A stretch of 64,000 nucleotides of DNA. Source: a phage. The translations under genes were made by a program, and so were the position numbers. Shown here one piece after another: positions 7,052 to 55,256 of the stretch (positions are counted from its first letter, which is position 1; every line of letters starts with the position of its first letter). The stretch is from sequence record PZ256263.1, one strand, 5' to 3'. Below the pieces are notes generated by a model that saw nothing but the letters and a program-made list of their open reading frames with translations, had not been told where the DNA came from and searched no databases.

Positions 7052-7074
7052 AGCCGCCTTTGAGCGGCTTTTTG
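7052..7074 (+). terminator. Rho-independent terminator-like hairpin
   Basis: GCCGC / GCGGC stem followed by TTTTT. Confidence 0.55.
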
Positions 7075-7136: not shown

Positions 7137-7163
7137 GCCCCGGCTACGGCTGGGGCTTTTTTA
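7137..7163 (+). terminator. Rho-independent terminator
   Basis: GCCCCGGC-tacg-GCTGGGGC stem (one G-U pair) followed by TTTTTTAT. Confidence 0.6.
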
Positions 7164-7601: not shown

Positions 7602-7800
7602 TCACTAGTGCCAGATTTGACAAACTAAATTCCTTTATAAACCAACCACTTAGTAAATTTATTGAAAAAGATGGTAGTATTCTGGGACTATGGGTAATGC
7701 TCTGTATATAGACCCTTTGAAAATTTCTTAGAAAATAAGTTTACTAAATATAACTTACTTAAATAATATTACTTTTAATCTCTGATAAAGGGTAAACAAT

Positions 7801-8346: not shown

Positions 8347-8583
8347 GTGAAAGTTAATATTAAATCCGATCGTACAATGCTTCGCTTAAATAATATGAAG
8401 CCGGGCGTTCTATTTGAGCGTAAAGATTCCCTTTACATCAGAACCGACACTCTGTACGCAGATAATTATATCAACTGTGTTGATGTAGTAACTGGAAAGC
8501 TCATGCCTTTTAAACGGGATGAAGTCTGCCAAGTTCGTAGCGATCTCCACATAACTAACATAGAGGCTAAAGATGAAGATTGA
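8347..8583 (+). CDS. Small paralogous protein, family A member 2
   Basis: GTG start after AAGGTGGA; family A pattern (PGVLFERK ... LYIRT ... VDVVTGKL). Confidence 0.5.
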   Translation: MKVNIKSDRTMLRLNNMKPGVLFERKDSLYIRTDTLYADNYINCVDVVTGKLMPFKRDEVCQVRSDLHITNIEAKDED

Positions 8584-8824
8584 TCTTGAGATGAAAGCTA
8601 AAGAGTTGTGTGTGGGTGATTTGAAACTTGGTGATGTATTCCAAGTTAAGGCAACATGTATTGATTATTACATGATCGTTCAGCTATATACACCACATGT
8701 GTCAGAGACTGATCTTCGGAATGGTTGTGTAGTGCTTAGTTTAAGCACCAATCAAGTAATGAAGCTAGATTCAAACTTACCTGTTTCAGTTATCCATGAT
8801 GCAGTAATTACCAATCGGAAGTGA
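8573..8824 (+). CDS. Small paralogous protein, family A member 3
   Basis: LGDVFQV ... DYYMIV ... family A pattern. Confidence 0.55.
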   Translation: MKIDLEMKAKELCVGDLKLGDVFQVKATCIDYYMIVQLYTPHVSETDLRNGCVVLSLSTNQVMKLDSNLPVSVIHDAVITNRK

Positions 8825-8826
8825 AC

Positions 8827-9039
8827 ATGAACATTGAAAAGAAGGTTGTTGACGAGGCTGTTCAGTTACGATCTCTTGAAACACATGATGTATTTGTGTG
8901 GGGAGGTAGTCTGTTTCAGAAATCTGCTTATGCTGTAGAGGGTGGGGTTCGTTGTTTTAATATCTTCAACAATGAGATGCAAATCCTACCTAACTTCGCT
9001 CATGTGAATAAACTTATCCACCTTTCTATTTATCAATAA
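8827..9039 (+). CDS. Small paralogous protein, family A member 4 (divergent)
   Basis: ATG at 8827 after GGAAGTGA; weaker family A pattern (HDVFVWG). Confidence 0.45.
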   Translation: MNIEKKVVDEAVQLRSLETHDVFVWGGSLFQKSAYAVEGGVRCFNIFNNEMQILPNFAHVNKLIHLSIYQ

Positions 9040-9049
9040 GGGCAATTAG

Positions 9050-9268
9050 ATGGAAATTAAAGTAGTTGATTACCCTAAATATGCAAACGCAGAAGATGTC
9101 AAGGGCGGTGATGTTTTCTCTTACGATAGACGTTTCTGGCTGATGTTAGAAGATAAAACTCCTGATGGTTTGTGTAAGGCCGCTAACTTGAACAGTGGTT
9201 CTGTTGAAGTCTTTGGTCTATCAACAACTGTTATGCCACGTCCTGATCTGTGTTTATCTCAAAAGTAA
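9050..9268 (+). CDS. Small paralogous protein, family A member 5
   Basis: GGDVFSY ... FWLML ... ANLNSGSV family A pattern. Confidence 0.55.
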   Translation: MEIKVVDYPKYANAEDVKGGDVFSYDRRFWLMLEDKTPDGLCKAANLNSGSVEVFGLSTTVMPRPDLCLSQK

Positions 9269-9626
9269 CACCGACTTATAGCCCTTGTGCTTATCAGAGG
9301 GCTATGTGAGGGTGTTCCTCATTAACTTATTAATTCAGGCATATGCCACACCGCTAGGGAGAGCTTGCTCGAACATCCGGTGTTAGACTAAAACCTGTTA
9401 ATTTTCGAAAGACTTTCTGATATGTAGGGGTACATATTAGTTTGGGATTCAGGAGACTTCCTAGGGGTAGGGAGTCTTCACCAGTTGGAATAAGAGATAG
9501 CTCTAGAACCTGAACTCTTAGGCAGAGAAGGTCGGCAATGAGTACGCGGTCAGAATTAGTCTACTGACTAGGGCTATCCCTTATATCAACTGGCAATAAT
9601 GCCTCCACTAACAAAGAGAGATAGGT

Positions 9627-9767
9627 ATGAAAGTATCAACCAAACGTATGAACCGCCCTGAACGTATGGATGCAGTAGCTAACGGTGCTCTGAAACTGGA
9701 AGGCTTCTGGGTTCATGCAATGTCAGCCATCCGTAACAAGCAAGGTAATTGGACCTATGCCGGTTAA
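9627..9767 (+). CDS. Small hypothetical protein (46 aa)
   Basis: ATG preceded by a GAGAGA-like RBS; below the ORF-track size cutoff. Confidence 0.35.
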   Translation: MKVSTKRMNRPERMDAVANGALKLEGFWVHAMSAIRNKQGNWTYAG

Positions 9768-9789
9768 ATCAGTCCATGTAATAGGTATG

Positions 9790-9966
9790 CGAGAGATCAT
9801 TCGCATTGCCTTAATGGAACACACTGATCGCAACGCTCAACTAACGCAAATCTCTAAGTGTCTTAACTGTTCGAGAGATGTGGCTAAGGAATTAATGTTC
9901 GCATTCCTTTATAATGCAGAAGACGAAACGCTACAGAATCATCTGATTCGTGGTGTGAGTCAATAA
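9790..9966 (+). CDS. Small hypothetical protein, possible HTH (58 aa)
   Basis: Internal ATG of track ORF 9715-9966 chosen to avoid overlap; start uncertain. Confidence 0.35.
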   Translation, partial: REIIRIALMEHTDRNAQLTQISKCLNCSRDVAKELMFAFLYNAEDETLQNHLIRGVSQ

Positions 9967-9971
9967 AGAGA

Positions 9972-10000
9972 GGCTGCCTTCGGGCGGCCTTTGTTGTTTT
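9972..10000 (+). terminator. Rho-independent terminator
   Basis: GGCTGCC-ttcg-GGCGGCC stem (one G-U pair) followed by TTTGTTGTTTT. Confidence 0.6.
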
Positions 10001-10043
10001 AATTAAGGGACAACTCTTACTTAAACTAACAAGAGGTGCTTAT

Positions 10044-10391
10044 ATGAGATGCATAGTTAAAAGTTGGGAAACTAAATCGGGTCTTCGTGCTGTGATTATG
10101 CACATGAACAATTCCCACTTATGTGGGTATGTAGAGTTACCAGATAGTTTGAAACATAAAAACTTCACCGGATATAACGGAGAGGAAAAGGTTGTTTGTT
10201 ATGTGAACGTTCATGGTGGTGTCACATGGCAAGACACACTTGAAGAGATGGGTGGTTTGGATACAATCGGATTTGATTGTGCCCATGCAGGCGATAAGAC
10301 ACAGTTCAACCCTAACGGGGTTCCAAGAACAGAAGCGTTCTGCATCAACGAGTGCGAACAAATGGCTGAACAACTGAGAGATCTTGAATAA
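10044..10391 (+). CDS. Hypothetical protein (115 aa)
   Basis: ORF with AAGAGG RBS; His/Cys/Asp-rich, possible metal site; no confident family. Confidence 0.5.
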   Translation: MRCIVKSWETKSGLRAVIMHMNNSHLCGYVELPDSLKHKNFTGYNGEEKVVCYVNVHGGVTWQDTLEEMGGLDTIGFDCAHAGDKTQFNPNGVPRTEAFCINECEQMAEQLRDLE

Positions 10392-10569
10392 AATGTCTAA
10401 GCAAACAATCAAAAATACGCAAGCTGGTTACTCTTATGTTAACTCTCCTTGCTGTGGTGCTCGTGTTAATCTGGTTAAGGAAGAGGTTCGTATCGTTCAG
10501 CGTGGCGCTACTGTTGTTCGTTCATGCTGTGTCTGTGGTAATGATATCTTTATTAAAGGTAAAGTATGA
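10384..10569 (+). CDS. Small zinc-ribbon-like protein (61 aa)
   Basis: Two Cys pairs (CCGAR ... CCVCGND). Confidence 0.45.
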   Translation: MNKMSKQTIKNTQAGYSYVNSPCCGARVNLVKEEVRIVQRGATVVRSCCVCGNDIFIKGKV

Positions 10570-10817
10570 AAAACTTCCAAGCTGCACCAATAACTAAAGT
10601 GATCGAAGTTGATGATGCGATGATGACTGTTCCTCTGAACACTCGTTACATTGCAATTGACAAGATGGGTTATGTATGGGCTTGGAAGATTAAGCCTAGT
10701 TATAACGCATTGTTTGATGAGTTTGTTTGTACTGGTACTTACAGTCCTACATTCTTGGGTTTATTTGGAGAGTTTGATGGTAAGCATAAAATCATCACTC
10801 TCCCTGCTTGTGCTTGA
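10566..10817 (+). CDS. Hypothetical protein (83 aa)
   Basis: ATGA overlap with the upstream gene. Confidence 0.45.
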   Translation: MKNFQAAPITKVIEVDDAMMTVPLNTRYIAIDKMGYVWAWKIKPSYNALFDEFVCTGTYSPTFLGLFGEFDGKHKIITLPACA

Positions 10818-10824
10818 GGTTATT

Positions 10825-10989
10825 ATGTTCAAGTGGTTTAAACGTTTCTTCCATCTCCATGATTGGGAGACAATAAAAGAAATTCGTTTACACATATATA
10901 ATGAGATTGGTCAAATAGAAGACACAGGTACTCGTTATATACTTCGATGTAAAACATGTGGTCATATCACCAAGCGAGATATGATCTAA
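10825..10989 (+). CDS. Small hypothetical protein (54 aa) with C-terminal CxxC
   Basis: ATG at 10825 after GAGGTTATT; ends just upstream of the tRNA. Confidence 0.4.
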   Translation: MFKWFKRFFHLHDWETIKEIRLHIYNEIGQIEDTGTRYILRCKTCGHITKRDMI

Positions 10990-10997
10990 ATAATTCT

Positions 10998-11073
10998 GCG
11001 CTCTTAGCTCAATGGATAGAGCAGTAGCCTTCTAAGCTATTGGTTACAGGTTCGAGTCCTGTAGGGCGCACCA
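10998..11073 (+). tRNA. tRNA-Arg (anticodon UCU), 76 nt including CCA
   Basis: Hand-folded cloverleaf: acceptor GCGCTCT/AGGGCGC, D-arm GCTC-AATGGAT-AGAGC, anticodon loop CTTCTAA, T-arm ACAGG-TTCGAGT-CCTGT, discriminator A then CCA. Confidence 0.85.
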
Positions 11074-11093
11074 AAATCAAATAGGAGGTGGTT

Positions 11094-11393
11094 ATGAGTT
11101 GGGGTGGTGTAATATCCTTAATCTGTATCTTCCTTGTCTGTGTGGCCCTTACAGGCTGCGTACAGAGCCGTCCTGATGGGTGGTGTGCAGTAGCAGTGGA
11201 TGGTATTTGTGTATCTCGCTGGCATAAAGGTGAGAAGGTTCCTTCTGGTGAGATTGATATGCGCTGGAACGGGGCAACCTGCTCTAATGCTAACCCTTCT
11301 ATTAATGAAGAGAAGTCTACGCCAGACAATGTTGTGATTGATACAGCGTTGTGGTGTGGTGGCTCTACGATTACAACCGGTAAGGAGTGGTAA
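11094..11393 (+). CDS. Cys-rich lipoprotein (99 aa)
   Basis: AGGAGG RBS; signal peptide with lipobox LTGC (ICIFLVCVALTGC); about 10 Cys in the mature part. Confidence 0.55.
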   Translation: MSWGGVISLICIFLVCVALTGCVQSRPDGWCAVAVDGICVSRWHKGEKVPSGEIDMRWNGATCSNANPSINEEKSTPDNVVIDTALWCGGSTITTGKEW

Positions 11394-11394
11394 T

Positions 11395-11643
11395 ATGACA
11401 GCTCATTATTGGAATACAAAGAAGCTTCTTGAAGAGATGGCTGGGGGTAGTAGAGTACAGCTGATTTCTATGCTTAGGATGGATGCTCGCTCTTTACGTT
11501 TCCAAGTAAAGATTGGTAACTTCAGTGATGGTCTTTATTACACACTGAAGGAAAGAATTAAGAAGACTCACTTTATTATGTACGGAATCAAACCGAGAAC
11601 ATATGTTAACTACATGTATTGGGATACATGCTACGATAATTGA
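11395..11643 (+). CDS. Hypothetical protein (82 aa)
   Basis: ATG at 11395 after AAGGAG. Confidence 0.5.
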   Translation: MTAHYWNTKKLLEEMAGGSRVQLISMLRMDARSLRFQVKIGNFSDGLYYTLKERIKKTHFIMYGIKPRTYVNYMYWDTCYDN

Positions 11644-11649
11644 GGTTAT

Positions 11650-11872
11650 TATGTTATTAGAAGCTAAGCAAACATTACCAGTAGTTCCTTTGTCTACACT
11701 TCTTAGTGGGAGTGCTTTTAGACATGATAATGGTTTTTGGATTAAGGGCGACCAAGAGGTTGGAGGATATATTACCTGCATCAACATCTGCAACGGCGTT
11801 GTTGACGGATTTCGTCCAGCCGCTGAAGTCACTCCTCAATCCAACGCAAAGGTTGTAGGTTTGGTATATTAA
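11650..11872 (+). CDS. Small paralogous protein, family A member 6
   Basis: About 60 percent identical by eye to 11882-12103 (FWIK, GYITC, NG-VDG-RP, VGLVY). Confidence 0.55.
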
Positions 11873-11881
11873 GGAACTTAT

Positions 11882-12103
11882 ATGAAATTAGATTCTAAAC
11901 AATCCCTTAAAACTGTTGAACTGTCCACACTGCCAAACGGAAGTATTTTTGGTCATGATAAACACTTCTGGATTAAAACAGACTACTTGAACGATGGGTA
12001 TATTACCTGCGTCAACCTTTGGAATGGTTCAGTGGATGGCTATCGCCCTAGTGCAAAAGTAGTCCCTCAGCCTGATGCAAAGGCTATAGGTTTGGTCTAC
12101 TAA
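11882..12103 (+). CDS. Small paralogous protein, family A member 7
   Basis: Tandem duplicate of 11650-11872. Confidence 0.55.
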   Translation: MKLDSKQSLKTVELSTLPNGSIFGHDKHFWIKTDYLNDGYITCVNLWNGSVDGYRPSAKVVPQPDAKAIGLVY

Positions 12104-12112
12104 GGAGTTCAT

Positions 12113-12286
12113 ATGAGCTGTTATGGTGGAGGTGAAGTTTATGATGACGATGATATGGAATCTAATGGGGAATGCCCCGATTGCGGGTGTGAGACGTTTG
12201 ATGGTGTATCAGTGTACCCTACCTGTAGTTACTCACCAGTGATTTGTAAAACATGTGGAGATCAACCTTGTGATCAGTCCTGTTAG
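12113..12286 (+). CDS. Small Cys-rich protein (57 aa)
   Basis: AAGGAG RBS; CPDCGC ... CKTCGDQPCDQSC; acidic DDDD run. Confidence 0.5.
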   Translation: MSCYGGGEVYDDDDMESNGECPDCGCETFDGVSVYPTCSYSPVICKTCGDQPCDQSC

Positions 12287-12287
12287 T

Positions 12288-12503
12288 ATGTTAATTATTT
12301 ACCTGATAGGTGTGGTGTTATCAGGTGTGTTCGTTAAGGTTGTTGATATTAAAGATGATCAAGTCTTCAGACATTGGAGCGGATATCCAAATCTCAGCAA
12401 AATAGCAATTGTCCTTTTCTTGTGGCCTATCATTGTTGCGTTGCTTATAATTATAGGACTTTGGACTTTGCTATGGGAGTTAATTCTTCCTGTCAAAAAG
12501 TAA
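12288..12503 (+). CDS. Small membrane protein (about 71 aa, two predicted TM helices)
   Basis: Hydrophobic segments IIYLIGVVLSGVFV and IAIVLFLWPIIVALLIIIGLWTLLW. Confidence 0.45.
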   Translation: MLIIYLIGVVLSGVFVKVVDIKDDQVFRHWSGYPNLSKIAIVLFLWPIIVALLIIIGLWTLLWELILPVKK

Positions 12504-12798
12504 GAGCTTATCGTGAAGGATTCTTACGAGAGTCCTTTGAGATAGGACTTCAGATCTCCTATCAAACTAACATTCATGTAACTAGCCCATAAGGGCGTTA
12601 CCCTTTAATAACCCAGCCCACTAAGGGGGCGGGAGTTTAGTGCTGGATGAGCATAACGCTTATTCCTACAAAGGCAACCGATTGTTAGATCTTACATGCA
12701 AACTTAATTAATAGGATAAGGGAGGATTCGTCCCCTCCCCCTATTTTATTGAATCTTTATCTAAGCAAGTCTTATATAAATGTTTAATTGGGGGATGT

Positions 12799-13110
12799 AT
12801 GAAAGCTCGAAGAACTATATGGACTCCGATACAGATTGAAAATCTTCGGAGATTAATCAAAGAATACTCTGTCCAAGAGATTGCTCAGATTATGAATGTA
12901 ACGGAGAATGCAGTTAATACAGCTTGCACTAAGTTCGGAATCTCTAGAGCTGTAATCCGAGTTAAGTGGTCTAAAGAAGAAGATCAGTTCCTTATCCGTA
13001 ATGCTGGGTTCATGTCTATTCAGAGAATGGCTGACATGCTCGGTAGAAGTTATGCTGCTGTACAGAACAGGGCATGTATGCACCTTAACATTAGCCTCAA
13101 ACTTAAATAG
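12799..13110 (+). CDS. Putative DNA-binding protein with two HTH-like repeats (103 aa)
   Basis: Internal duplication W..x..L..Lxxxxxx..IAxxM.....AV. reminiscent of sigma region 4 / Myb-like HTH. Confidence 0.45.
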   Translation: MKARRTIWTPIQIENLRRLIKEYSVQEIAQIMNVTENAVNTACTKFGISRAVIRVKWSKEEDQFLIRNAGFMSIQRMADMLGRSYAAVQNRACMHLNISLKLK

Positions 13111-13118
13111 GAATCAAT

Positions 13119-13373
13119 ATGAAAGTTAATGAGTTAAACAAAACTACCAAGACTGTGAAACTGCACACTCTGAAAAAGGGTGATACATTCCGTTTAGAGG
13201 AGAATGGTCCAATCCATATGGTTTGTACTGCGGCATCTACTAACTGGGTAGAAGTTGCACGAGATCGAGTAGTGTGTGTCAGGCTGGAAGATGGTAGTCT
13301 GAGCGGTCCAGTTGAAGGTATCTCTGTTATTCCTGTTAAGGTTGAAGCTAACGTTATTAAGGACTCTAAATGA
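13119..13373 (+). CDS. Small paralogous protein, family A member 8
   Basis: KKGDTFRLE ... family A pattern. Confidence 0.5.
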   Translation: MKVNELNKTTKTVKLHTLKKGDTFRLEENGPIHMVCTAASTNWVEVARDRVVCVRLEDGSLSGPVEGISVIPVKVEANVIKDSK

Positions 13374-13615
13374 AGATCATCCCAAAGAAAAAGGATAATA
13401 CGGTACGGTTGGAAACGATCATTCCCGGAAACCCCTTCGTGGTTCAGCACGGAAGTGCCTCTCCTCAATATTATATGAGGGTTGAAAATGCTTCTGGTAA
13501 TATCCGTATAGCCAGTGGCTGGGTTCCTGTGGTAAACCTTTCCACAGGTGTACTATCTGTTAAAGGTCTTGATGATCAGGTAGAAATGATTCGTATGTCA
13601 GTGGTTCAGGAGTAG
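13370..13615 (+). CDS. Small paralogous protein, family A member 9
   Basis: QYYMRV ... VVNLSTGVL family A pattern. Confidence 0.55.
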   Translation: MKIIPKKKDNTVRLETIIPGNPFVVQHGSASPQYYMRVENASGNIRIASGWVPVVNLSTGVLSVKGLDDQVEMIRMSVVQE

Positions 13616-13617
13616 GT

Positions 13618-13866
13618 ATGAGCATCATTAATATTAAGGTTAAGGGCAAGGAGGAAATAGTCCTCCGTGTTAGAGATCTAAATATGTCAGATGTGTTCAC
13701 TCTCCAAGAGTGTCAGAATCAAAAGATTTATATGCTTACAGCTAAAAGCAGGGGCTGTCAACCTGCTGGAGCTGTTAACCTAGGCACTGGAGAACTACGT
13801 GTCATCTCTGGTGATATGGTTGTTGGTGAGAAGTTTATTAAGGCTGAAATCATCTTAACTTCATAG
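13618..13866 (+). CDS. Small paralogous protein, family A member 10
   Basis: SDVFTLQ ... IYMLT ... AVNLGTGEL family A pattern. Confidence 0.55.
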   Translation: MSIINIKVKGKEEIVLRVRDLNMSDVFTLQECQNQKIYMLTAKSRGCQPAGAVNLGTGELRVISGDMVVGEKFIKAEIILTS

Positions 13867-13874
13867 GTGATCTA

Positions 13875-14087
13875 ATGACACAAGAAGAGAAAGATATACT
13901 CATCCAGAATGCGTATCTACTGTTTTCCTCTGAGGATGTTCTGTTCGATCAGCTTTCTAAATTGTGGAAAGTGTCCGAAGAAGAGACTAAAGAGAAGTTT
14001 TATTCTGGCATAACAGAAGATTACAAATCTTTTCTTGGTGAGGTGCTGAGAGATCGGCATGTGTATCTAAGTAATTACGCCTGTTAA
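13875..14087 (+). CDS. Hypothetical acidic protein (70 aa)
   Basis: ORF with GGTGA-like RBS. Confidence 0.45.
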   Translation: MTQEEKDILIQNAYLLFSSEDVLFDQLSKLWKVSEEETKEKFYSGITEDYKSFLGEVLRDRHVYLSNYAC

Positions 14088-14320
14088 TAGGAAAACAAGT
14101 GATCACATTTAATGATTCTACAGAAGAAATGACCAACATGAAAGGCTTCGGTCAACGACAGCCTGACGGTTCAATTATCTGGTTCGTAAATGGACAGAAA
14201 AAGGTAGCTAAATAAGCCCTCTTCTCTCCTCCTTTTAGTACTATGACGCCTCTCTGTGGGCGGCCCAATTTGCGTAGGGAATTCCCTCTACGCAGTCATG
14301 ATTTTTAAGGAATTTCCCCT

Positions 14321-14554
14321 ATGTCTAAAGTAAGTGCAATTGATGCAATCCGTCAACCGTTCCAGTTCCAATCCAAATCAACCCAAACCTTCAGCGAGCC
14401 TAAGCAAATTCGCTTGGGTGGCACAGAGAAGACTGTGTTTGATCTGGCTAAAAACAAGAGCGTTACCGTAGTTGATGGTGGCACTCTGGTTAACGTTTCC
14501 CATCGTATCCGCACTGGCAAAACTGCCAAAGATCGTGCTAAGAAAGGTGAGTAA
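14321..14554 (+). CDS. Hypothetical protein (77 aa)
   Basis: ORF with AAGGAA RBS. Confidence 0.45.
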   Translation: MSKVSAIDAIRQPFQFQSKSTQTFSEPKQIRLGGTEKTVFDLAKNKSVTVVDGGTLVNVSHRIRTGKTAKDRAKKGE

Positions 14555-14796
14555 TGAAAATAGGGAAACCAGCTAAGGATGTTCTAGCGAAGATTGGTGA
14601 TATCTCTATTGGGGAAGTTTTCTCAGCTGAGCACTTTTCAAGTTACTACATGAGAATCCCTGACACTAAAGTTGAGGGTTGCATCATCCCTGCCAACGCA
14701 GTTAACCTGAACACAGGACACCTGTCTGCATTCAAACCTGATTCACAGGTTACTGAAATCAAAGATGCCTACCTCGCCTTTGGTGGGGATAAGTAG
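14554..14796 (+). CDS. Small paralogous protein, family A member 11
   Basis: IGEVFSAE ... SYYMRI ... AVNLNTGHL family A pattern. Confidence 0.55.
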   Translation: MKIGKPAKDVLAKIGDISIGEVFSAEHFSSYYMRIPDTKVEGCIIPANAVNLNTGHLSAFKPDSQVTEIKDAYLAFGGDK

Positions 14797-15027
14797 AGTA
14801 ACATCTATAGCCTTCTTCTGAGGGCTATGTGAGTTATTCTGACTCAACTAACCTAATCTTAATATATTTCCCGTATGGGGCCGATGCTAGGGCGAGGAAT
14901 GTTCCTCAAACATCCGTCGGATAGATATTTTAAGAGCAGGTTATCCACAGATATTGGGTAATATCTTTTTGGATTTAAAGCTTGGCTCTTTTCGGAGAGT
15001 CCTTTTTTAAATTCAATGAGAGGAAAT

Positions 15028-15180
15028 ATGTCTAAATTAGATTTAAAACTGCTAGCAGCAGCGATAGTGATTTGTGCACTAGCACTGGTAACGCAGAGAA
15101 CATCTGGATTTATTCAGTGTTTCTTTTCTGGGCAATCCACTTATCAGTGGGTTATTGACGAGTGTAAACAACAGGAGTAA
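15028..15180 (+). CDS. Small membrane protein (50 aa)
   Basis: GAGAGGAAAT RBS; hydrophobic LLAAAIVICALALV. Confidence 0.4.
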   Translation: MSKLDLKLLAAAIVICALALVTQRTSGFIQCFFSGQSTYQWVIDECKQQE

Positions 15181-15182
15181 GT

Positions 15183-15545
15183 ATGAATACACGTCCCATC
15201 AAGGGCAACGTTAATATTGAAACTCTGAACAAGGTTGCATCAAACCTCGGTGGAATGTCCAACGATGAGCTTGAGCAAGAACTTGCTTGGATTGCAAGTG
15301 GTATCAAAGTTGCTAAAGGTAAGATTGCTCGTGAGCAAAGCAACATGAAAGCTCACAAGTATGTCATCCGTCATGCAAACATGTTACCAGAGCGGGTTGT
15401 ACATCTTGCCCGTAAAAACTACGCAGAAGCAAAGAAAGCTCTGGAAGAAGCTACTTTCCAGAAGCATCAATTTATGAACAACTATAGAAACTTCCGAGAT
15501 ATTCTTTATATCCGTAAGTCGATTGAGTTGATTAAAAACCAATAG
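15183..15545 (+). CDS. Hypothetical protein (120 aa)
   Basis: ORF with GGAG RBS; helical, charged. Confidence 0.5.
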   Translation: MNTRPIKGNVNIETLNKVASNLGGMSNDELEQELAWIASGIKVAKGKIAREQSNMKAHKYVIRHANMLPERVVHLARKNYAEAKKALEEATFQKHQFMNNYRNFRDILYIRKSIELIKNQ

Positions 15546-36551: not shown

Positions 36552-38396
36552 GTGAGCAACCCGGACGCTCTCCCATTTTTGACAGAGATGACTGTCGCTG
36601 ATATAATCTCTAAGCAAGCAAAGCACGGAGTGAGTTTCAACCGAAGAAATGCTCGGTGGTATGTTCACCTCCTTAAAGAGATTATTGTTAATATTGACAA
36701 AGAACTGATTCCTCTCTTACCTAAGATGAGATTAGATGGCTCAACTTATATGAAGCCGTTTAAGAAGTCTGGAGCTTTACAGAAGTGGCCTCAAGCCTAT
36801 TGCGATAGAGTTGGCCTCAAGAGAGAAGACATTGGTGGAGCATTCACCTGTGTCGAGTACGTAGACTTTGACCCATCGAAAGATGCACGAGTTAAAGAAG
36901 CCCTTATGGATGAGGGTTTTCTTCCTCCAGAGTTTAACGTATCTAAAAAGCCTTGGAACACTTTCGAAATTAAGAAAGACATGCGAAAGTATGGAACATA
37001 CCAAGCATGGTACACCGCTTGGATGCGAGGCAATGCTAAACAGAAACAGACAGCCGAGATGGTTGACGCTGATATTAAGAAGTTCTTAGAGAAACACTTT
37101 AGGTTCAAGACTAAGAACTACATGAAGGCTTATGTGTTTGGTTTGGGATTAAACCCTAACCGACGTAACCCTGTAACATTTGACGAGATTAAGAAAGCAC
37201 TAGCTACCTCAAACAAGTGGCCTACAGCTCCTACAAACCTCGAGGAGACTCTTGAAGAAGGGTTAGGGGGTGAGCTAGGGAGTGTCGGAAGTTTGCTTAA
37301 GAGACGTGTTGTAGCGGCTCACAGGCTAGGTCTTATTAGTGGACTTATAGCAAAGGAGCGCGAAGATGGTAAACTTTCGGCAGAAGCTAACAGCTGCGCT
37401 ACGCCGACTTTTCGATTCAAACATCGTATCGTGGTTAATATTCCCTCCCGTGGTTTGTTTGGTCATGAGTGTCGCAGTTTGTTTGAGTCTGACTATAACT
37501 CAGATGATGATCACTCTCGTCCTTTCGTTATTACTAACGTTGTTCCTGATGGTTGTTATATACGAAAAGGTACTAACGTAATTTATGAAAAAGGTAAGCC
37601 GGGGAAGAAAGATAAGCCTGTAGGTGCTTACAAATATTACATACCCGCTGGTAAAGAAGTATTCTTAGGGTATGATGGTTCTGGATTAGAGTTGCGTATG
37701 CTTGCACACTACCTCATTAAAGAGTGTAGAGATATGCTTGCTGAAGCAATAGAAGAAAACAATCCAGCTAAGAAAGCTCTGGCAGAACGTGGTTTAGCTT
37801 CTGCTATTATGTATCGTGATATTCTCCTTGAAGGTGATATCCACTCTCACAACCAGAAACTTGCTGGTCTTCCTACTCGTGACAACGCTAAGACATTTAT
37901 CTACGCATTCAACTATGGTGCTGGTGATGCTAAGCTCGGTTCAATTGTAGGTGGTGGGGCTGACGAAGGTTCAGTGATGCGAGCACGTTTCTTGGCAGAG
38001 AACCCGTGTATTGCAATCCTCATTGATCGTATGACAGAGAAAGCTGCTCAAGGATACTTGATTGGTGTTGATGGTCGTAAGATTACAATGAGACGGGATG
38101 CCACTGGTAAGGTTATGGTTCATAAAGCACTTAACACCCTCCTGCAATGTGCTGGTGCTGTTGTTATGAAATATGCTATGATGTTCCTTAACAAGTGGAT
38201 TGAGAGAGATGGGGTTCGTTGTGCTAAGGTAATTGATATGCACGATGAGGGCCAGTTCTCAGTGAACCGTAATGATGTACAGAAACTCAAAGAACACACC
38301 GAGCTTTGTGTTAAGAAGGCTGGTGAGTATTTGAACATGGAATGTCCTCTGGCATCTGATTGTCAGATTGGACTTAACTGGATGCATACACACTAA
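36552..38396 (+). CDS. Family-A DNA polymerase, polymerase-domain subunit (614 aa)
   Basis: Motif A LGYDGSGLELRMLAHY, motif B RDNAKTFIYAFNYGAGDAKLG, motif C VIDMHDEGQF; no exonuclease motifs in this ORF. Confidence 0.85.
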   Translation: MSNPDALPFLTEMTVADIISKQAKHGVSFNRRNARWYVHLLKEIIVNIDKELIPLLPKMRLDGSTYMKPFKKSGALQKWPQAYCDRVGLKREDIGGAFTCVEYVDFDPSKDARVKEALMDEGFLPPEFNVSKKPWNTFEIKKDMRKYGTYQAWYTAWMRGNAKQKQTAEMVDADIKKFLEKHFRFKTKNYMKAYVFGLGLNPNRRNPVTFDEIKKALATSNKWPTAPTNLEETLEEGLGGELGSVGSLLKRRVVAAHRLGLISGLIAKEREDGKLSAEANSCATPTFRFKHRIVVNIPSRGLFGHECRSLFESDYNSDDDHSRPFVITNVVPDGCYIRKGTNVIYEKGKPGKKDKPVGAYKYYIPAGKEVFLGYDGSGLELRMLAHYLIKECRDMLAEAIEENNPAKKALAERGLASAIMYRDILLEGDIHSHNQKLAGLPTRDNAKTFIYAFNYGAGDAKLGSIVGGGADEGSVMRARFLAENPCIAILIDRMTEKAAQGYLIGVDGRKITMRRDATGKVMVHKALNTLLQCAGAVVMKYAMMFLNKWIERDGVRCAKVIDMHDEGQFSVNRNDVQKLKEHTELCVKKAGEYLNMECPLASDCQIGLNWMHTH

Positions 38397-54203: not shown

Positions 54204-55256
54204 TTAGTTTGCTCCAAATGCCCCTAAGACACCACCTAAGATATTACTACCTGCTGTGGATAACCAGTTAGACTGACCTTTCTGTTGAGAAAGGTTAGAA
54301 CCTCCAATCATAGGACCAGCCATTCCAGATTGCCCACCTGAGTTGTTATAGGAACTCCAAGCATTCTGAGTCTGTTGGTTAGGAGAGAAAGCACCCATAC
54401 GACCTGCAATACCTAATCCAGTGATACCAGCACCTAGGAGCTGTTGTCCAGTATTAACCCCCGGAGCAGCATTCTTAATCGTGTACCCAGCCATTGGGCT
54501 TACACTATTTAATACATTAAGTTGGTTGTTAAGCTGATTCCACCCATACTGTTGAGAGCCAATAGCGTTCTGCCAATTAATATCAGCTTGAGCTTGGGCT
54601 TGTTGCTGTTGTAGATTACCAGCCATGAGTTGATTCTGGATAGCTTGTTGAGTTGCCTGAACACCTTGAGCACCAAGATTGAGATTCTGTCCAGCCAATC
54701 CTGACTGAGCACCAAGTAAGCCCCTCTGGAAGTTTTGGTCTTGTTGAAGAGCACTGATTCCCATATTCTTGCCACTGATAGTACGAGCTAAGTTTGTATT
54801 AGCACTGTTCAGAGCAGCACCTTGAGCAGCAGCTCTACGGAGAGAACCTGAATCAGAACCATTTCCGAGGGATACATTGGAAGCTGCTTTGCTAGTAGCT
54901 TGTGCAAGGGCTGAGTTATTCAAACCTTTACTAAAGTTATTAACCCCTTCAGCTGTTACTCCACCACCATTGACAATATTCTGATACTGCTGTGCAAGAG
55001 AGTTTAATTGGTCCAACCCTTGCTGTGTACGAGGCGTGTACATATCAGCCAATTGCTTCTGAGTAGTAGAAGCTGCTAAGTTGTTCAGAGCACCCTGTTG
55101 GTTGCCATTAAACCCAGCCAGTTGTTGGGAGATGAATCCCGGATCGTTGTTCTGCATATTCTGAGCATTAGCAACAATCTGCTTCAGCAGGGCATCAACC
55201 TGAGAGGAAGGGGCCACTGTGGTTTTGCTAGAAGCTGATTTTCCAAATAAAGACAT
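54204..55256 (-). CDS. Q/N/G/A-rich low-complexity virion protein (350 aa)
   Basis: Same composition as 53223-54191; possible paralog. Confidence 0.5.
   Translation of the reverse strand: MSLFGKSASSKTTVAPSSQVDALLKQIVANAQNMQNNDPGFISQQLAGFNGNQQGALNNLAASTTQKQLADMYTPRTQQGLDQLNSLAQQYQNIVNGGGVTAEGVNNFSKGLNNSALAQATSKAASNVSLGNGSDSGSLRRAAAQGAALNSANTNLARTISGKNMGISALQQDQNFQRGLLGAQSGLAGQNLNLGAQGVQATQQAIQNQLMAGNLQQQQAQAQADINWQNAIGSQQYGWNQLNNQLNVLNSVSPMAGYTIKNAAPGVNTGQQLLGAGITGLGIAGRMGAFSPNQQTQNAWSSYNNSGGQSGMAGPMIGGSNLSQQKGQSNWLSTAGSNILGGVLGAFGAN

Follow-up and report, generated by a model that had tools for sequence, protein, structure and literature searches.

A conserved multi-hairpin RNA in two early-gene spacers of a phiEco32-like coliphage

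Results

We examined two spacers in a window of 64,000 nucleotides (the whole stretch of DNA analyzed, record PZ256263.1) from a phiEco32-like coliphage. Both lie on the + strand within the early genes, copy 1 (e1) at 9264-9626 and copy 2 (e2) at 14797-15012, and each comes directly behind a family-A gene; the first of these genes (9050-9268) ends with TAA at 9266-9268 and the second (14554-14796) with TAG at 14794-14796. Since the copies follow paralogous genes, they must have arisen by segmental duplication. The spacers measure 358 nt (copy 1) and ∼220-230 nt (copy 2) and are non-coding, the longest ORF on either strand being ≤34 aa. CDS annotations that several GenBank records place over the element are probably spurious. 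The early polycistronic transcript that carries the element is made by the host sigma70 RNA polymerase. Early transcripts begin far upstream, at sigma70 promoters at 672, 3217, and 3850 of the window (PMC4281155), and the element lies 5-10 kb from these. Three terminator-like sites are found upstream of copy 1, and a tRNA-Arg (10998-11073) is located near the element.

An earlier note on this DNA had claimed that similar hairpins follow the stops at 9268 and 14796. We located them exactly there: the pattern TATAGCC...GGCTATGTGAG was matched twice, at 9277-9310 and 14806-14833, against 0 matches expected from 100 shuffles, and the hairpins start 8-10 nt past the stop codons. Pairwise alignment of the spacers gave a local score of 30, compared with 17.7 ± 2.1 (maximum 25) for shuffles. 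Two of the sequence blocks described as shared, GCTAGGG(A/C)GAG and AACATCCG, are indeed collinear in copies 1 and 2, and as a composite pattern they occur only at 9353-9379 and 14886-14916 (0 expected). The other block, TTCCTCA, did not hold up, as it occurs at the chance rate (12 found versus 12.1 expected) and is not collinear, forming the 3′ arm of H2 in copy 1 but part of the H4 inner hairpin in copy 2.

Table 1 Features of the two copies of the element, in window coordinates
Copy	Feature	Coordinates	Strand	Remarks
1	AGTAACA lead motif	9264..9270	+	Its TAA (9266-9268) is the upstream family-A stop
1	H1, TATAGCCCT / AGGGCTATG, 12-nt loop	9277..9306	+	Pattern match and covariation
1	H2, TGAGG / CCTCA, includes TTCCTCA	9307..9321	+	Stem varies between copies
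1	H3, GGC-ATAT-GCC, conserved xTAT loop	9338..9347	+	Stem variants pair
1	H4, outer stem ACACCG/CGGTGT, invariant internal loop CTAGGGA // GAACATC, inner hairpin GAG-CTTG-CTC	9348..9383	+	
1	H5, AT-rich ATATGTA/TACATAT, GGGG loop	9417..9440	+	3 pairs change on both sides, 8 phages
1	H6, GGAGACT/AGTCTTC, loop CCTAGGGGTAGG	9452..9479	+	4 pairs change on both sides
1	H7, irregular ∼24-bp stem bearing an apical domain	9481..9592	+	Candidate RNase III-type processing helix
1	H7 apical three-way-junction module	9504..9570	+	Similar to P22-like N / gene 24 leader
1	H8, GGCA-ATAA-TGCC	9592..9603	+	Directly upstream of Shine-Dalgarno and ATG (9627) of phi32_112 homolog
2	AGTAACA lead motif	14797..14803	+	Immediately after TAG (14794-14796) of family-A gene 14554-14796
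2	H1, TATAGCCTT / GAGGGCTATG, short loop	14806..14829	+	Pattern match and covariation
2	H2, TGAGT / ACTCA	14830..14846	+	
2	Linker, 5′ strand of long-range helix (UAACCU, AUCUUA, UAUAUU)	14848..14869	+	
2	H3, CCC-GTAT-GGG	14870..14879	+	
2	H4, outer stem CCGAUG/CGUCGG, internal loop CTAGGGC // AAACATC, inner hairpin GAGGA-ATGT-TCCTC	14881..14920	+	
2	Tail after H4, 3′ strand of long-range helix (AGAUAU, UAAGAG, AGGUUA)	14922..14943	+	
2	DnaA-box consensus TTATCCACA, perfect	14941..14949	+	Overlaps long-range helix and H5
2	H5, AGATATT-GGGT-AATATCT	14949..14966	+	Counterpart of copy 1 H5
2	Intrinsic terminator, GGCTCTT-TTCG-GAGAGTC and T6	14984..15008	+	Flanked by complementary UUUAAAG and UUUUUUAAA

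The two spacers are homologous over a core that consists, in order, of AGTAACA, H1, H2, a linker, H3, and H4 (Table 1). The H4 internal loop, whose consensus CUAGGGN // NAACAUC is invariant, has the collinear blocks GCTAGGG.GAG and AACATCCG as its two sides. Further copies were found in several phage groups, and we compared the core across 21 sequences comprising Kuravirus, Suseptimavirus, Nieuwekanaalvirus, Salmonella phage 7-11, Citrovirus, and one metagenomic phage. For the four-hairpin fold, 96-98% of cells were paired and 10-17 of the 26 pairs were altered on both sides (96% and 17/26 for the 21 sequences), whereas shuffled and slid controls reached only 31-46% paired. RNAalifold recovered the same H1-H4 helices independently. 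A covariance model trained solely on copy-2-type sequences retrieved copy 1 at full length (E about 1e-10) and found no third copy in the window, where the composite pattern likewise has two sites only.

Core stems vary freely provided that pairing holds, and the loop of H3 and the 7x7 H4 internal loop are fixed. For instance, six of the nine H1 pairs change on both sides when the Citrovirus copies and the metagenomic homolog L048 are counted, and the H1 loop ranges from 4 to 12 nt across copies. H2 appears as TGAGG/CCTCA (e1), TGAGT/ACTCA (e2), and TGAGC/GCTCA (SU7), and the H3 stem as GGC/GCC, GCC/GGC, CCC/GGG, or TGC/GCA with its xTAT loop conserved. All pairs of the H4 outer stem covary (4/4), the loop letters being invariant. 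L048 has wholly different stem sequences with pairing retained and loop motifs invariant. In addition, G.U wobbles favor the gene-sense strand (98.0% versus 92.2% paired), and the core is nearly invariant where flanking proteins fall to 23% identity. Taken together, these results show that one conserved structured RNA is present in the spacers as two paralogous copies, its fold being formed by the gene-sense strand of the early polycistronic transcript. The covariance model, the pairing of the stems relative to controls, and the sense-strand wobbles strongly support the functional-RNA half of the earlier note's proposal (a functional RNA or protein-binding element rather than spacer DNA); the RNA may act either as a free ncRNA or in cis on the mRNA. 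When we scanned the 64-kb window with Rfam 15, only the tRNA-Arg passed, and at E ≤ 10 over 9200-15300 neither element was matched; nothing similar was found in Rfam or in the literature searched. H1 is not an intrinsic terminator, as the hairpin is followed by GTGAGG/GTGAGT with no Ts and was not listed by a terminator scan.

Beyond the core, copy 1 contains four conserved hairpins (H5-H8); copy-1-type elements have neither a long-range helix around H3-H4 nor a terminator. A sequence resembling e1 H5 comes after H4 in L048, and hairpins with an AGGGGT-type loop occupy the position matching e1 H6 in L048 and Klyazma. H7 has an MFE of −43 kcal/mol (z = −5.2) and a covarying stem, which SU7-like phages keep without the apical insert. 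Copy 2 forms a compact fold of ∼210 nt (z = −5.1) ending in an intrinsic terminator, with an 18-bp (6+6+6) long-range helix around H3-H4. The long-range duplex was calculated at −15.7 kcal/mol, compared with −6.2 ± 2.2 for shuffled tails, and its middle segments covary between lineages. The hairpin at 14984-15008 has the defining features of an intrinsic terminator, with conservation extending to 7-11, and is annotated as a terminator in the 7-11 and SU7 records. Since the next gene, starting at 15016/15028, abuts this terminator and leaves no space for a promoter, read-through must be obligatory.

The apical module of H7 is 78-79% identical (22 identical bases) to the leader of N / gene 24 in P22-like phages, and the H7 tip is homologous to this leader in 27 such phages. 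In those leaders, an ∼18-bp stem located between nutL and N carries the module, which in phage L is found between the nutL boxB and gene 24. The tip is conserved and its supporting stem covaries. Because the module is absent from the SU7-like, Citrovirus, and L048 copies, we regard it as an accessory outside the core. Of the boxA (CGCTCTTA / YGCTCTTTA) and ∼15-nt boxB hairpin that mark a lambda-type nut site, we found neither on direct reading of H1-H4; the true P22 boxB GCGCTGACAAAGCGC was seen in L054 and L055. Four neighboring proteins, the phi32_112 and phi32_111 homologs and 7-11 gp135 and gp136, gave no Pfam N_peptide or Q match and no BLASTP similarity to P22-like N.

The element is found in three families whose phages bring their own sigma factor. 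In 25/25 copies examined, the stop codon upstream ends −4 to +5 nt from the element start, and the abutting ORF, whether of family A or not, is always early and small. Downstream genes are unrelated between lineages and the upstream gene is not conserved either; in some phages, an exchange at the AGTAACA junction has replaced the upstream gene, and in EcoN5 copy 2 is tandemly duplicated together with its neighbors. Because the element always abuts an early small-ORF stop and the genes downstream are unrelated, it belongs to the transcript and not to one gene. It lies 1-1.5 kb from an early promoter in Citrovirus and 18 kb from the promoters in 7-11, after other terminator-like sites. With only two copies in the window and none in E. 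coli chromosomes, it is not a dispersed repeat of the REP-like type or of the type of the PeSL-like cassettes of T4-type phages.

Discussion

We infer that the element most likely controls the fate of long early transcripts, and we tentatively favor a transcript-punctuation module that combines RNase III-type stems with a factor-binding core. The invariant H4 loop would be the docking site for a conserved, putative trans-acting factor of host or phage origin, and the long irregular helices on the core (the copy 2 long-range helix and copy 1 H7) would serve as RNase III-type processing stems. Cleavage at these helices would sever the early polycistronic RNA, and H1-H4 would remain as a stable 3′ end protecting the upstream small-gene mRNA. 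For the downstream cistrons, cleavage would also uncouple translation and stability, an effect that the structured leader of N has in lambdoid phages. In copy 2, a partial intrinsic terminator would be fused to the module, and the two may together control how much of the transcription of the host-takeover genes continues into the next early-gene block.

Several observations are consistent with transcript punctuation. The structure covaries on the sense strand and is conserved beyond the neighboring proteins, it is tied to the transcript and not to a particular gene, and the copy 2 terminator adjoins the next gene and is conserved to 7-11. RNase III sites are irregular helices of ∼two turns (about 20 bp), and the predicted long-range (6+6+6 bp) and H7 (∼24 bp) helices are of substrate size. 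The H7 tip is homologous to the P22-like N leader, and PMC5725501 (citing Wilson 1997 and 2002) describes the lambda N leader as highly structured and N translation as modulated there by RNase III. However, copy-1-type elements do without the long-range helix, and the apical module is missing from the SU7-like, Citrovirus, and L048 copies. Because RNase III is hardly sequence-specific, it cannot account for the invariant H4 loop, and 3′ protection does not obviously need four hairpins because a simple hairpin would do.

The main rival is put/nut-like processive antitermination, which we consider rather unlikely. Here, the nascent RNA of H1-H4 would bind the elongating host RNA polymerase, either by itself or together with Nus factors or a phage protein, and permit read-through of 14984-15008 and later terminators. 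Early transcripts from the far-upstream sigma70 promoters (PMC4281155) must cross several intrinsic terminators, that of copy 2 obligatorily; the order of element then terminator is conserved in 7-11, whose antitermination strategy "remains to be defined" (PMC8948821). Two copies per genome recall putL/putR and nutL/nutR, invariant loops would suit binding to a conserved host machine, the Citrovirus element is near its early promoter, and copy 1 is partly shared with a real nutL-N leader. Against this, terminator-like sites already precede copy 1 and the 7-11 element, Citrovirus early regions show no terminator excess downstream of the element, boxA and boxB are missing from H1-H4, the four neighboring proteins tested have no N or Q signature, and the architecture is unlike the two-hairpin put. 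It is conceivable, if rather unlikely, that H1-H4 is the RNA part of a previously unknown antitermination or elongation-control system, its H4 loop docking on RNA polymerase or a Nus factor for passage of the 14984-15008 terminator, in podophages that keep the host RNA polymerase and have their own sigma factor (Gordonclarkvirinae, Grimontviridae, and some Zobellviridae). If true, this would be the undefined antitermination strategy postulated for 7-11.

A trans-acting stable ncRNA or decoy, excised from the early transcript or ending at the copy 2 terminator, which sequesters or reprograms a conserved host protein in host takeover, is unlikely. The element does sit among host-takeover genes with neither flanking gene conserved across lineages, and G-rich motifs (CUAGGG, GUAGGGG, CUAGGGGUAGG) recur in its exposed loops; the copy 2 fold with its terminator resembles a 3′-UTR-derived sRNA, and the helix around H3-H4 resembles stems that excise stable RNAs. 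However, a conserved promoter of its own was not found, copy-1-type elements lack the terminator, and known protein-sponge motifs and Rfam families are unmatched.

Improbable, too, is a role at the DNA level as a DnaA site or replication origin, a protein operator on the H1 palindrome, or a recombination-promoting boundary between gene modules. One-strand G.U wobbles and compensatory changes indicate RNA, and an H1 loop of such variable length is unsuited to a dimeric operator. The swapping of upstream genes at AGTAACA and the EcoN5 duplication speak for a DNA-level role. The perfect TTATCCACA is kept in every copy 2 lineage including 7-11, but it is a single box present in copy 2 only, one half of it is base-paired within the long-range RNA helix, and this pairing accounts for part of its conservation. 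One perfect box with scattered one-mismatch sites is not the box cluster of a DnaA-dependent origin; GC skew tracks gene orientation, with no inflection at 9-15 kb. That the copies are a duplication remnant or neutral spacer, as their position behind paralogous genes might suggest, is scarcely credible given the extensive compensatory stem change and a core kept across three phage families whose flanking proteins have diverged beyond recognition.

Among known systems, HK022 put has a two-hairpin structure of about 70 nt near the promoter. Like putL/putR, the present copies are two paralogous multi-hairpin sense-strand RNAs of early transcripts, upstream of terminators, with structure conserved above sequence. 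Unlike put, whose two adjacent stem-loops act in cis on RNA polymerase and need no protein factors, they have four core hairpins and one to four more (4-8 hairpins over 125-350 nt) and lie kilobases (5-10 kb) from promoters, and they share no sequence similarity with it; in architecture they do not match put. The T7 RNase III sites (R0.3 to R1.3) are likewise related structured elements between early genes on a host-polymerase polycistronic transcript, and their cleavage leaves protective 3′ hairpins; each T7 site, however, is one irregular hairpin of about 60 nt that has no invariant loop motif, whereas the present element is larger and branched and has a sequence-invariant core. In the lambdoid N leader (lambda, P22, phage L), nutL is followed by a structured RNase III-sensitive region and N. 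Both this leader and our element are structured non-coding RNAs of an early operon that host RNA polymerase transcribes, both immediately precede a small early gene, and both have a long irregular stem (18-24 bp), but H1-H4 has no counterpart in the lambdoid leaders, and most members of our family lack the shared module. The large, ornate phage ncRNAs ROOL and GOLLD and other orphan structured motifs known from comparative genomics are, like our element, phage-borne and strongly covarying, and a tRNA gene is located nearby; our element is much smaller, embedded between operon ORFs instead of free-standing, and without a match to those Rfam models.

The element is a previously undescribed, strongly conserved multi-hairpin RNA, and enlarges the known set of structured phage RNAs by one well-supported family. 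No other non-coding feature of the early region is conserved in three phage families, and the element stands at a terminator that needs read-through and has a module in common with the leader of the classic N antiterminator gene. Concrete targets for mutation are the H4 loop, the long helices, and the terminator. phiEco32, SU10, 7-11, CVT22, and many therapy candidates are models of sigma-factor takeover of the host RNA polymerase, and the punctuation of their 20-40 kb early transcripts and passage through terminators is an acknowledged gap (PMC8948821).

Two copies of a common core in the early gene cluster

The window derives from a Kuravirus, a phiEco32/SU10-like coliphage; identity is 99% to Escherichia phages ev_rybdy3 and ev_rybdy8 and 92 to 95% to SU10, NJ01, KBNP1711, and SGF2. 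Both copies of the element lie on the + strand in the cluster of early genes, surrounded by homologs of phi32_90 to phi32_117. The region upstream carries strong sigma70-type promoters (at about 672, 3217, and 3850), in agreement with those reported for SU10 and phiEco32 (PMC4281155). Several sigma70-like hexamer pairs also occur in a 199-nt AT-rich intergenic gap (7602-7800) that follows terminators at 7052-7069 and 7137-7156; this gap probably serves as an internal promoter region for early genes and is unrelated to the element.

The earlier note had described similar hairpins directly after the stop codons of two gene arrays. We found exact matches to TATAGCC...GGCTATGTGAG at 9277-9310 and 14806-14833 only (0 expected by chance), and the hairpins start 8 to 10 nt past the stop codons at 9266-9268 and 14794-14796. 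The spacers are non-coding, as had been proposed, with ORFs of at most 34 aa in both. Among the three sequence blocks thought to be shared, GCTAGGG(A/C)GAG and AACATCCG are collinear, and their composite pattern occurs in the window only at 9353-9379 and 14886-14916 (0 expected). The third, TTCCTCA, has to be given up as a shared block since it occurs at the chance rate (12 found versus 12.1 expected) and occupies a different structural position in each copy.

Both copies present AGTAACA, H1, H2, an A/U-rich linker, H3, H4, and UAGA in the same order, H1 to H4 being the hairpins of the core, and the stem differences between copies preserve pairing. The hexamer CTAGGG is rarer in the window than expected (14 found, 21 expected), yet the copy 1 spacer has three occurrences and copy 2 has one. 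Those at 9354, 9461, and 14887 fall in a predicted loop or internal loop, and the one at 9568 forms the 3′ side of the uppermost part of the H7 stem. Three further readings of the core, each assessed by eye, were dropped. The H1/H2 sequence CTATGTGAG does not fit the promoter consensus of the phage sigma (gp36), tAATGTAtA, agreeing at 4 of 9 positions. A conserved internal sigma70 promoter was rejected because the −10-like TATATT of the copy 2 linker is retained in neither Salmonella phage 7-11 nor copy 1. Lastly, a pseudoknot joining the linker to the CUAGGG loop would have to pair in registers that are inconsistent among lineages.

Features of the element in the two copies and in L048, a locus from a metagenomic phage. 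H5 to H8 are hairpins 3′ of the core.
Feature	Copy or locus	Position	Strand	Sequence or description
Lead motif AGTAACA	Both copies			Overlaps or touches the upstream stop codon
H2 helix	Both copies			Copy 1 TGAGG/CCTCA; copy 2 TGAGT/ACTCA
H3	Both copies			Small hairpin, xTAT loop
H3 helix	Both copies			Copy 1 GGC/GCC; copy 2 CCC/GGG
H4	Both copies			Outer stem, symmetric internal loop CUAGGGN // NAACAUC, inner hairpin
H4 outer stem	Both copies			Copy 1 ACACCG/CGGTGT; copy 2 CCGAUG/CGUCGG
H4 inner hairpin	Both copies			Copy 1 GAG/CTC; copy 2 GAGGA/TCCTC
H5	Copy 1	9417-9440	+	GGGG loop
H6	Copy 1	9452-9479	+	Loop CCUAGGGGUAGG
H7	Copy 1	9481-9592	+	About 24-bp stem, z = -5.2
H8	Copy 1	9592-9603	+	
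H5	Copy 2			AGATATT-GGGT-AATATCT, 3′ of the long-range helix
Intrinsic terminator	Copy 2	14984-15008	+	Conserved; after H5
H1	L048			GTTAAGCG/CGCTTAAC
H2	L048			TATACA/TGTATA
H4 outer stem	L048			ATAGCG/CGCTAT

Homologs, covariation, and strand

The search for copies in related phages suggested by the earlier note was productive: 99 GenBank phage records contain copy 1 and 103 contain copy 2. Copy 2 is 73% identical in Salmonella phage 7-11, which is reported to share only about 40 CDSs with SU10 (PMC4281155). A covariance model trained on nine copy-2-type sequences only (R1) recovered copy 1 of the window at full length (56 bits, E 2.5e-10), matched every Kuravirus, Nieuwekanaalvirus, and Suseptimavirus locus that we fetched, and gave no third copy in the window. 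In phage vB_EcoP_EcoN5, copy 2 and its neighbors are tandemly duplicated (about 1.5 kb; L021 5774-5902 and 7292-7420), so that three elements are present.

Scanning for the H4 core in collections of viral, metagenome, and genome sequences added further members. In L048 (JBOFGJ010000684.1, 48.7 kb), all stem sequences differ yet pair, and the H3 loop and H4 internal loop are unchanged. This contig was binned as a Flavobacterium MAG, probably mistakenly, and resembles a CVT22-like (Zobellviridae) podophage; it carries small-gene arrays, an Srd/sigma70-decoy homolog, and a 446-aa protein 41% identical to its CVT22 counterpart. A second covariance model (R2) matched two Zobellviridae, Klebsiella phage Klyazma (33 bits, E about 3e-6) and Citrobacter phage CVT22 (24 bits, E about 1e-3), each match beginning at a stop codon that closes a small early ORF. 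Erwinia phage Pecta gave no R2 match, and neither did the half of GAP52 that was scanned (40-76 kb). Loci L009, L010/L018, L029, L034, L039, L046, and L047 were set aside as chance matches to the core pattern that failed the full model or had no flanking hairpins.

In alignments that are biased toward structure because they were fitted by covariance models, 98% of cells are paired and 10 of 26 pairs are altered on both sides among the 25 R1 hits, and 96.4% and 17 of 26, respectively, among 21 sequences from all lineages. The covariation scores were 0.341 versus 0.116 for shuffled alignments in the first set (0 of 500 reached 0.341) and 0.446 versus 0.145 in the second (0 of 500), with slid controls only 31 to 46% and 34 to 43% paired. 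The covariance check that the earlier note had called for thus supports the fold. RNAalifold independently yields the same helices, and the raw sequences and L048 give the same pairings unfitted.

Pairing also distinguishes the strands. On the + strand 98.0% of cells pair versus 92.2% on the − strand, and the 38 G.U wobbles of the + strand would become A.C mismatches if the − strand were the one that folds. Moreover, the H1 loop is 4 to 12 nt long, and this variable length makes a duplex operator ill-suited. Together, the wobbles, the strand difference, and the variable loop indicate that the element is an RNA fold of the gene-sense strand. Several GenBank genomes (e.g., PQ850593, PQ850610, NC_070989, MN045231, and NC_027395) have CDSs annotated across one of the two copies, labeled "hypothetical protein" or "membrane protein"; these are probably spurious since the RNA covaries and a conserved ORF is absent.

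Genes adjoining the element

The stop codon of the upstream ORF ends -4 to +5 nt from the element start in all 25 copies examined, and in most of them it is the TAA within AGTAACA. In 17 copies this ORF belongs to family A (phrog_6570 and relatives). The other eight, as well as the Citrovirus and L048 copies, follow unrelated ORFs, which rules out an obligatory family-A protein partner. Genes downstream are likewise unrelated from lineage to lineage, so the element is not the leader of a conserved downstream gene and is tied to the transcript rather than to any one gene. The family-A proteins beside the two copies in the window are 23% identical to each other whereas the core is nearly invariant, which argues that constraint acts on the RNA itself.

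In the window, family-A arrays at 8347-9268 and 13119-14796 (phrog_6570, 12612, 7431, 16423, and others) encode 70 to 84-aa all-beta proteins with the motif MKI...GDVF...VNL.TG.L. An AlphaFold model gave a five-stranded beta barrel (pLDDT 77), a fold uninformative as to function, with weak, generic SH3-like barrel matches (best E 0.047).

Structures beyond the core

Copy 2 (14797-15012, 216 nt; z = -5.1) contains a long-range helix of ∼18 bp that encloses H3 and H4 and is formed between the H2-H3 linker and the sequence following H4 (UAACCU/AGGUUA, AUCUUA/UAAGAG, and UAUAUU/AGAUAU). Its predicted energy was -12 to -16 kcal/mol in all 11 copy-2-type sequences tested versus about -6 ± 2 for shuffled tails, and comparison of Kuravirus, 7-11, and metagenomic relatives shows covariation in its middle segments. 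In copy-1-type elements, we found no significant helix around H3-H4, pairing being no better than in shuffled controls.

The T-run of the copy 2 terminator ends 8 nt 5′ of the earliest start codon that the next gene could use. This leaves no room for a promoter, and the downstream genes must therefore be read through the terminator. Attenuation by pairing of AAGAGC with GCTCTT of the terminator arm was rejected because AAGAGC is engaged in the long-range helix. Between H4 and the terminator lies a perfect DnaA-box consensus, TTATCCACA (14941-14949), kept in every copy 2 lineage including 7-11; the window has just one other perfect box, on the − strand (54255-54263). The AGGUUA strand of the long-range helix makes up half of the box at 14941-14949, and the remainder lies in a CCA...UGG mini-hairpin, so RNA pairing may account for its conservation. 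GC skew did not support a replication origin.

The remainder of the 358-nt copy 1 spacer is also conserved and structured, with nine pairs of H5 to H8 altered on both sides. By eye, H5- or H6-like features occur at corresponding places in L048 and Klyazma. A 58-nt insert at the H7 tip (9504-9570), missing from SU7-like phages, is 78 to 79% identical to a block in 27 P22-like phages, including 22 consecutive identical bases. There, the block forms part of the leader of gene 24, which encodes the N antiterminator (Pfam N_peptide, E 3e-44), and sits between nutL boxB and the gene 24 start codon, a layout borne out by the curated phage L record X94331. The P22-like block likewise caps a stem, of about 18 bp; this supporting stem covaries between Kuravirus and P22-like phages (TAGCTCTA/TAGGGCTA against TGCAGGTA/TATCTGCA) and the apical three-way junction is conserved. 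For lambda, a passage in PMC5725501, citing Wilson 1997 and 2002, describes the nutL-N region as highly structured, with RNase III modulating translational repression of N. In plasmid records, matches were confined to the apical module of copy 1 H7 and came from two P22-like phages whose genomes were deposited as plasmids.

Copy 1 was not found in 7-11, where the 711-nt gap beside the phi32_112 homolog carries tRNA-like sequence instead. This unannotated gap (L006 37134-37844; record 82134-82844, − strand) contains tRNA-like T-arm and acceptor 3′ ends (GGTTCGAATCC... and GGTTCGACTCC...CCGCTCCA) and a sub-threshold Rfam match to permuted tmRNA RF04321 (29.6 bits versus a gathering score of 47); ARAGORN called no gene in it. 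The initiation leader ACTAACAAAGAGAGAT is common to the phi32_112 homolog of the window (9608-9626) and the unrelated gp134 of 7-11 (L006 about 37140-37165).

Possible function and relation to known families

The analyses show the element to be a conserved fold of the sense-strand RNA whose internal loop does not vary and which follows a stop codon in the early polycistronic transcript, in agreement with the proposal of functional RNA over spacer DNA. The element is attached to helices of RNase III-substrate size and, in copy 2, fused to a terminator through which transcription has to pass. These features lead us to favor, tentatively, a module that punctuates the transcript. The long helices would serve as processing stems, the core could give the RNA a stable 3′ end and also offer a conserved factor a place to dock, and the terminator of copy 2 might set how much transcription enters the following block of genes.

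Its chief rival is an antitermination RNA of the put or nut type, which would account for the required read-through, suits the two-copy layout, and fits the knowledge gap stated for 7-11. We consider it less likely, however, given terminator-like sites upstream of copy 1, Citrovirus early regions without terminator enrichment downstream of the element, and the distance of the element from promoters in 7-11. The four adjoining proteins tested showed no N or Q signature. That the RNA is released to act as a decoy or ncRNA is less likely again, and a role at the DNA level is improbable.

No Rfam 15 family matches the element, literature searches found no description of it, and it is absent from E. 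coli chromosomes. It lacks the defining features of nut and put sites, plain terminators, DnaA origins, and dispersed repeats, and shares with RNase III sites only helix length. By these comparisons, the element is an undescribed family of a known general kind, the structured regulatory RNAs of phage early operons.
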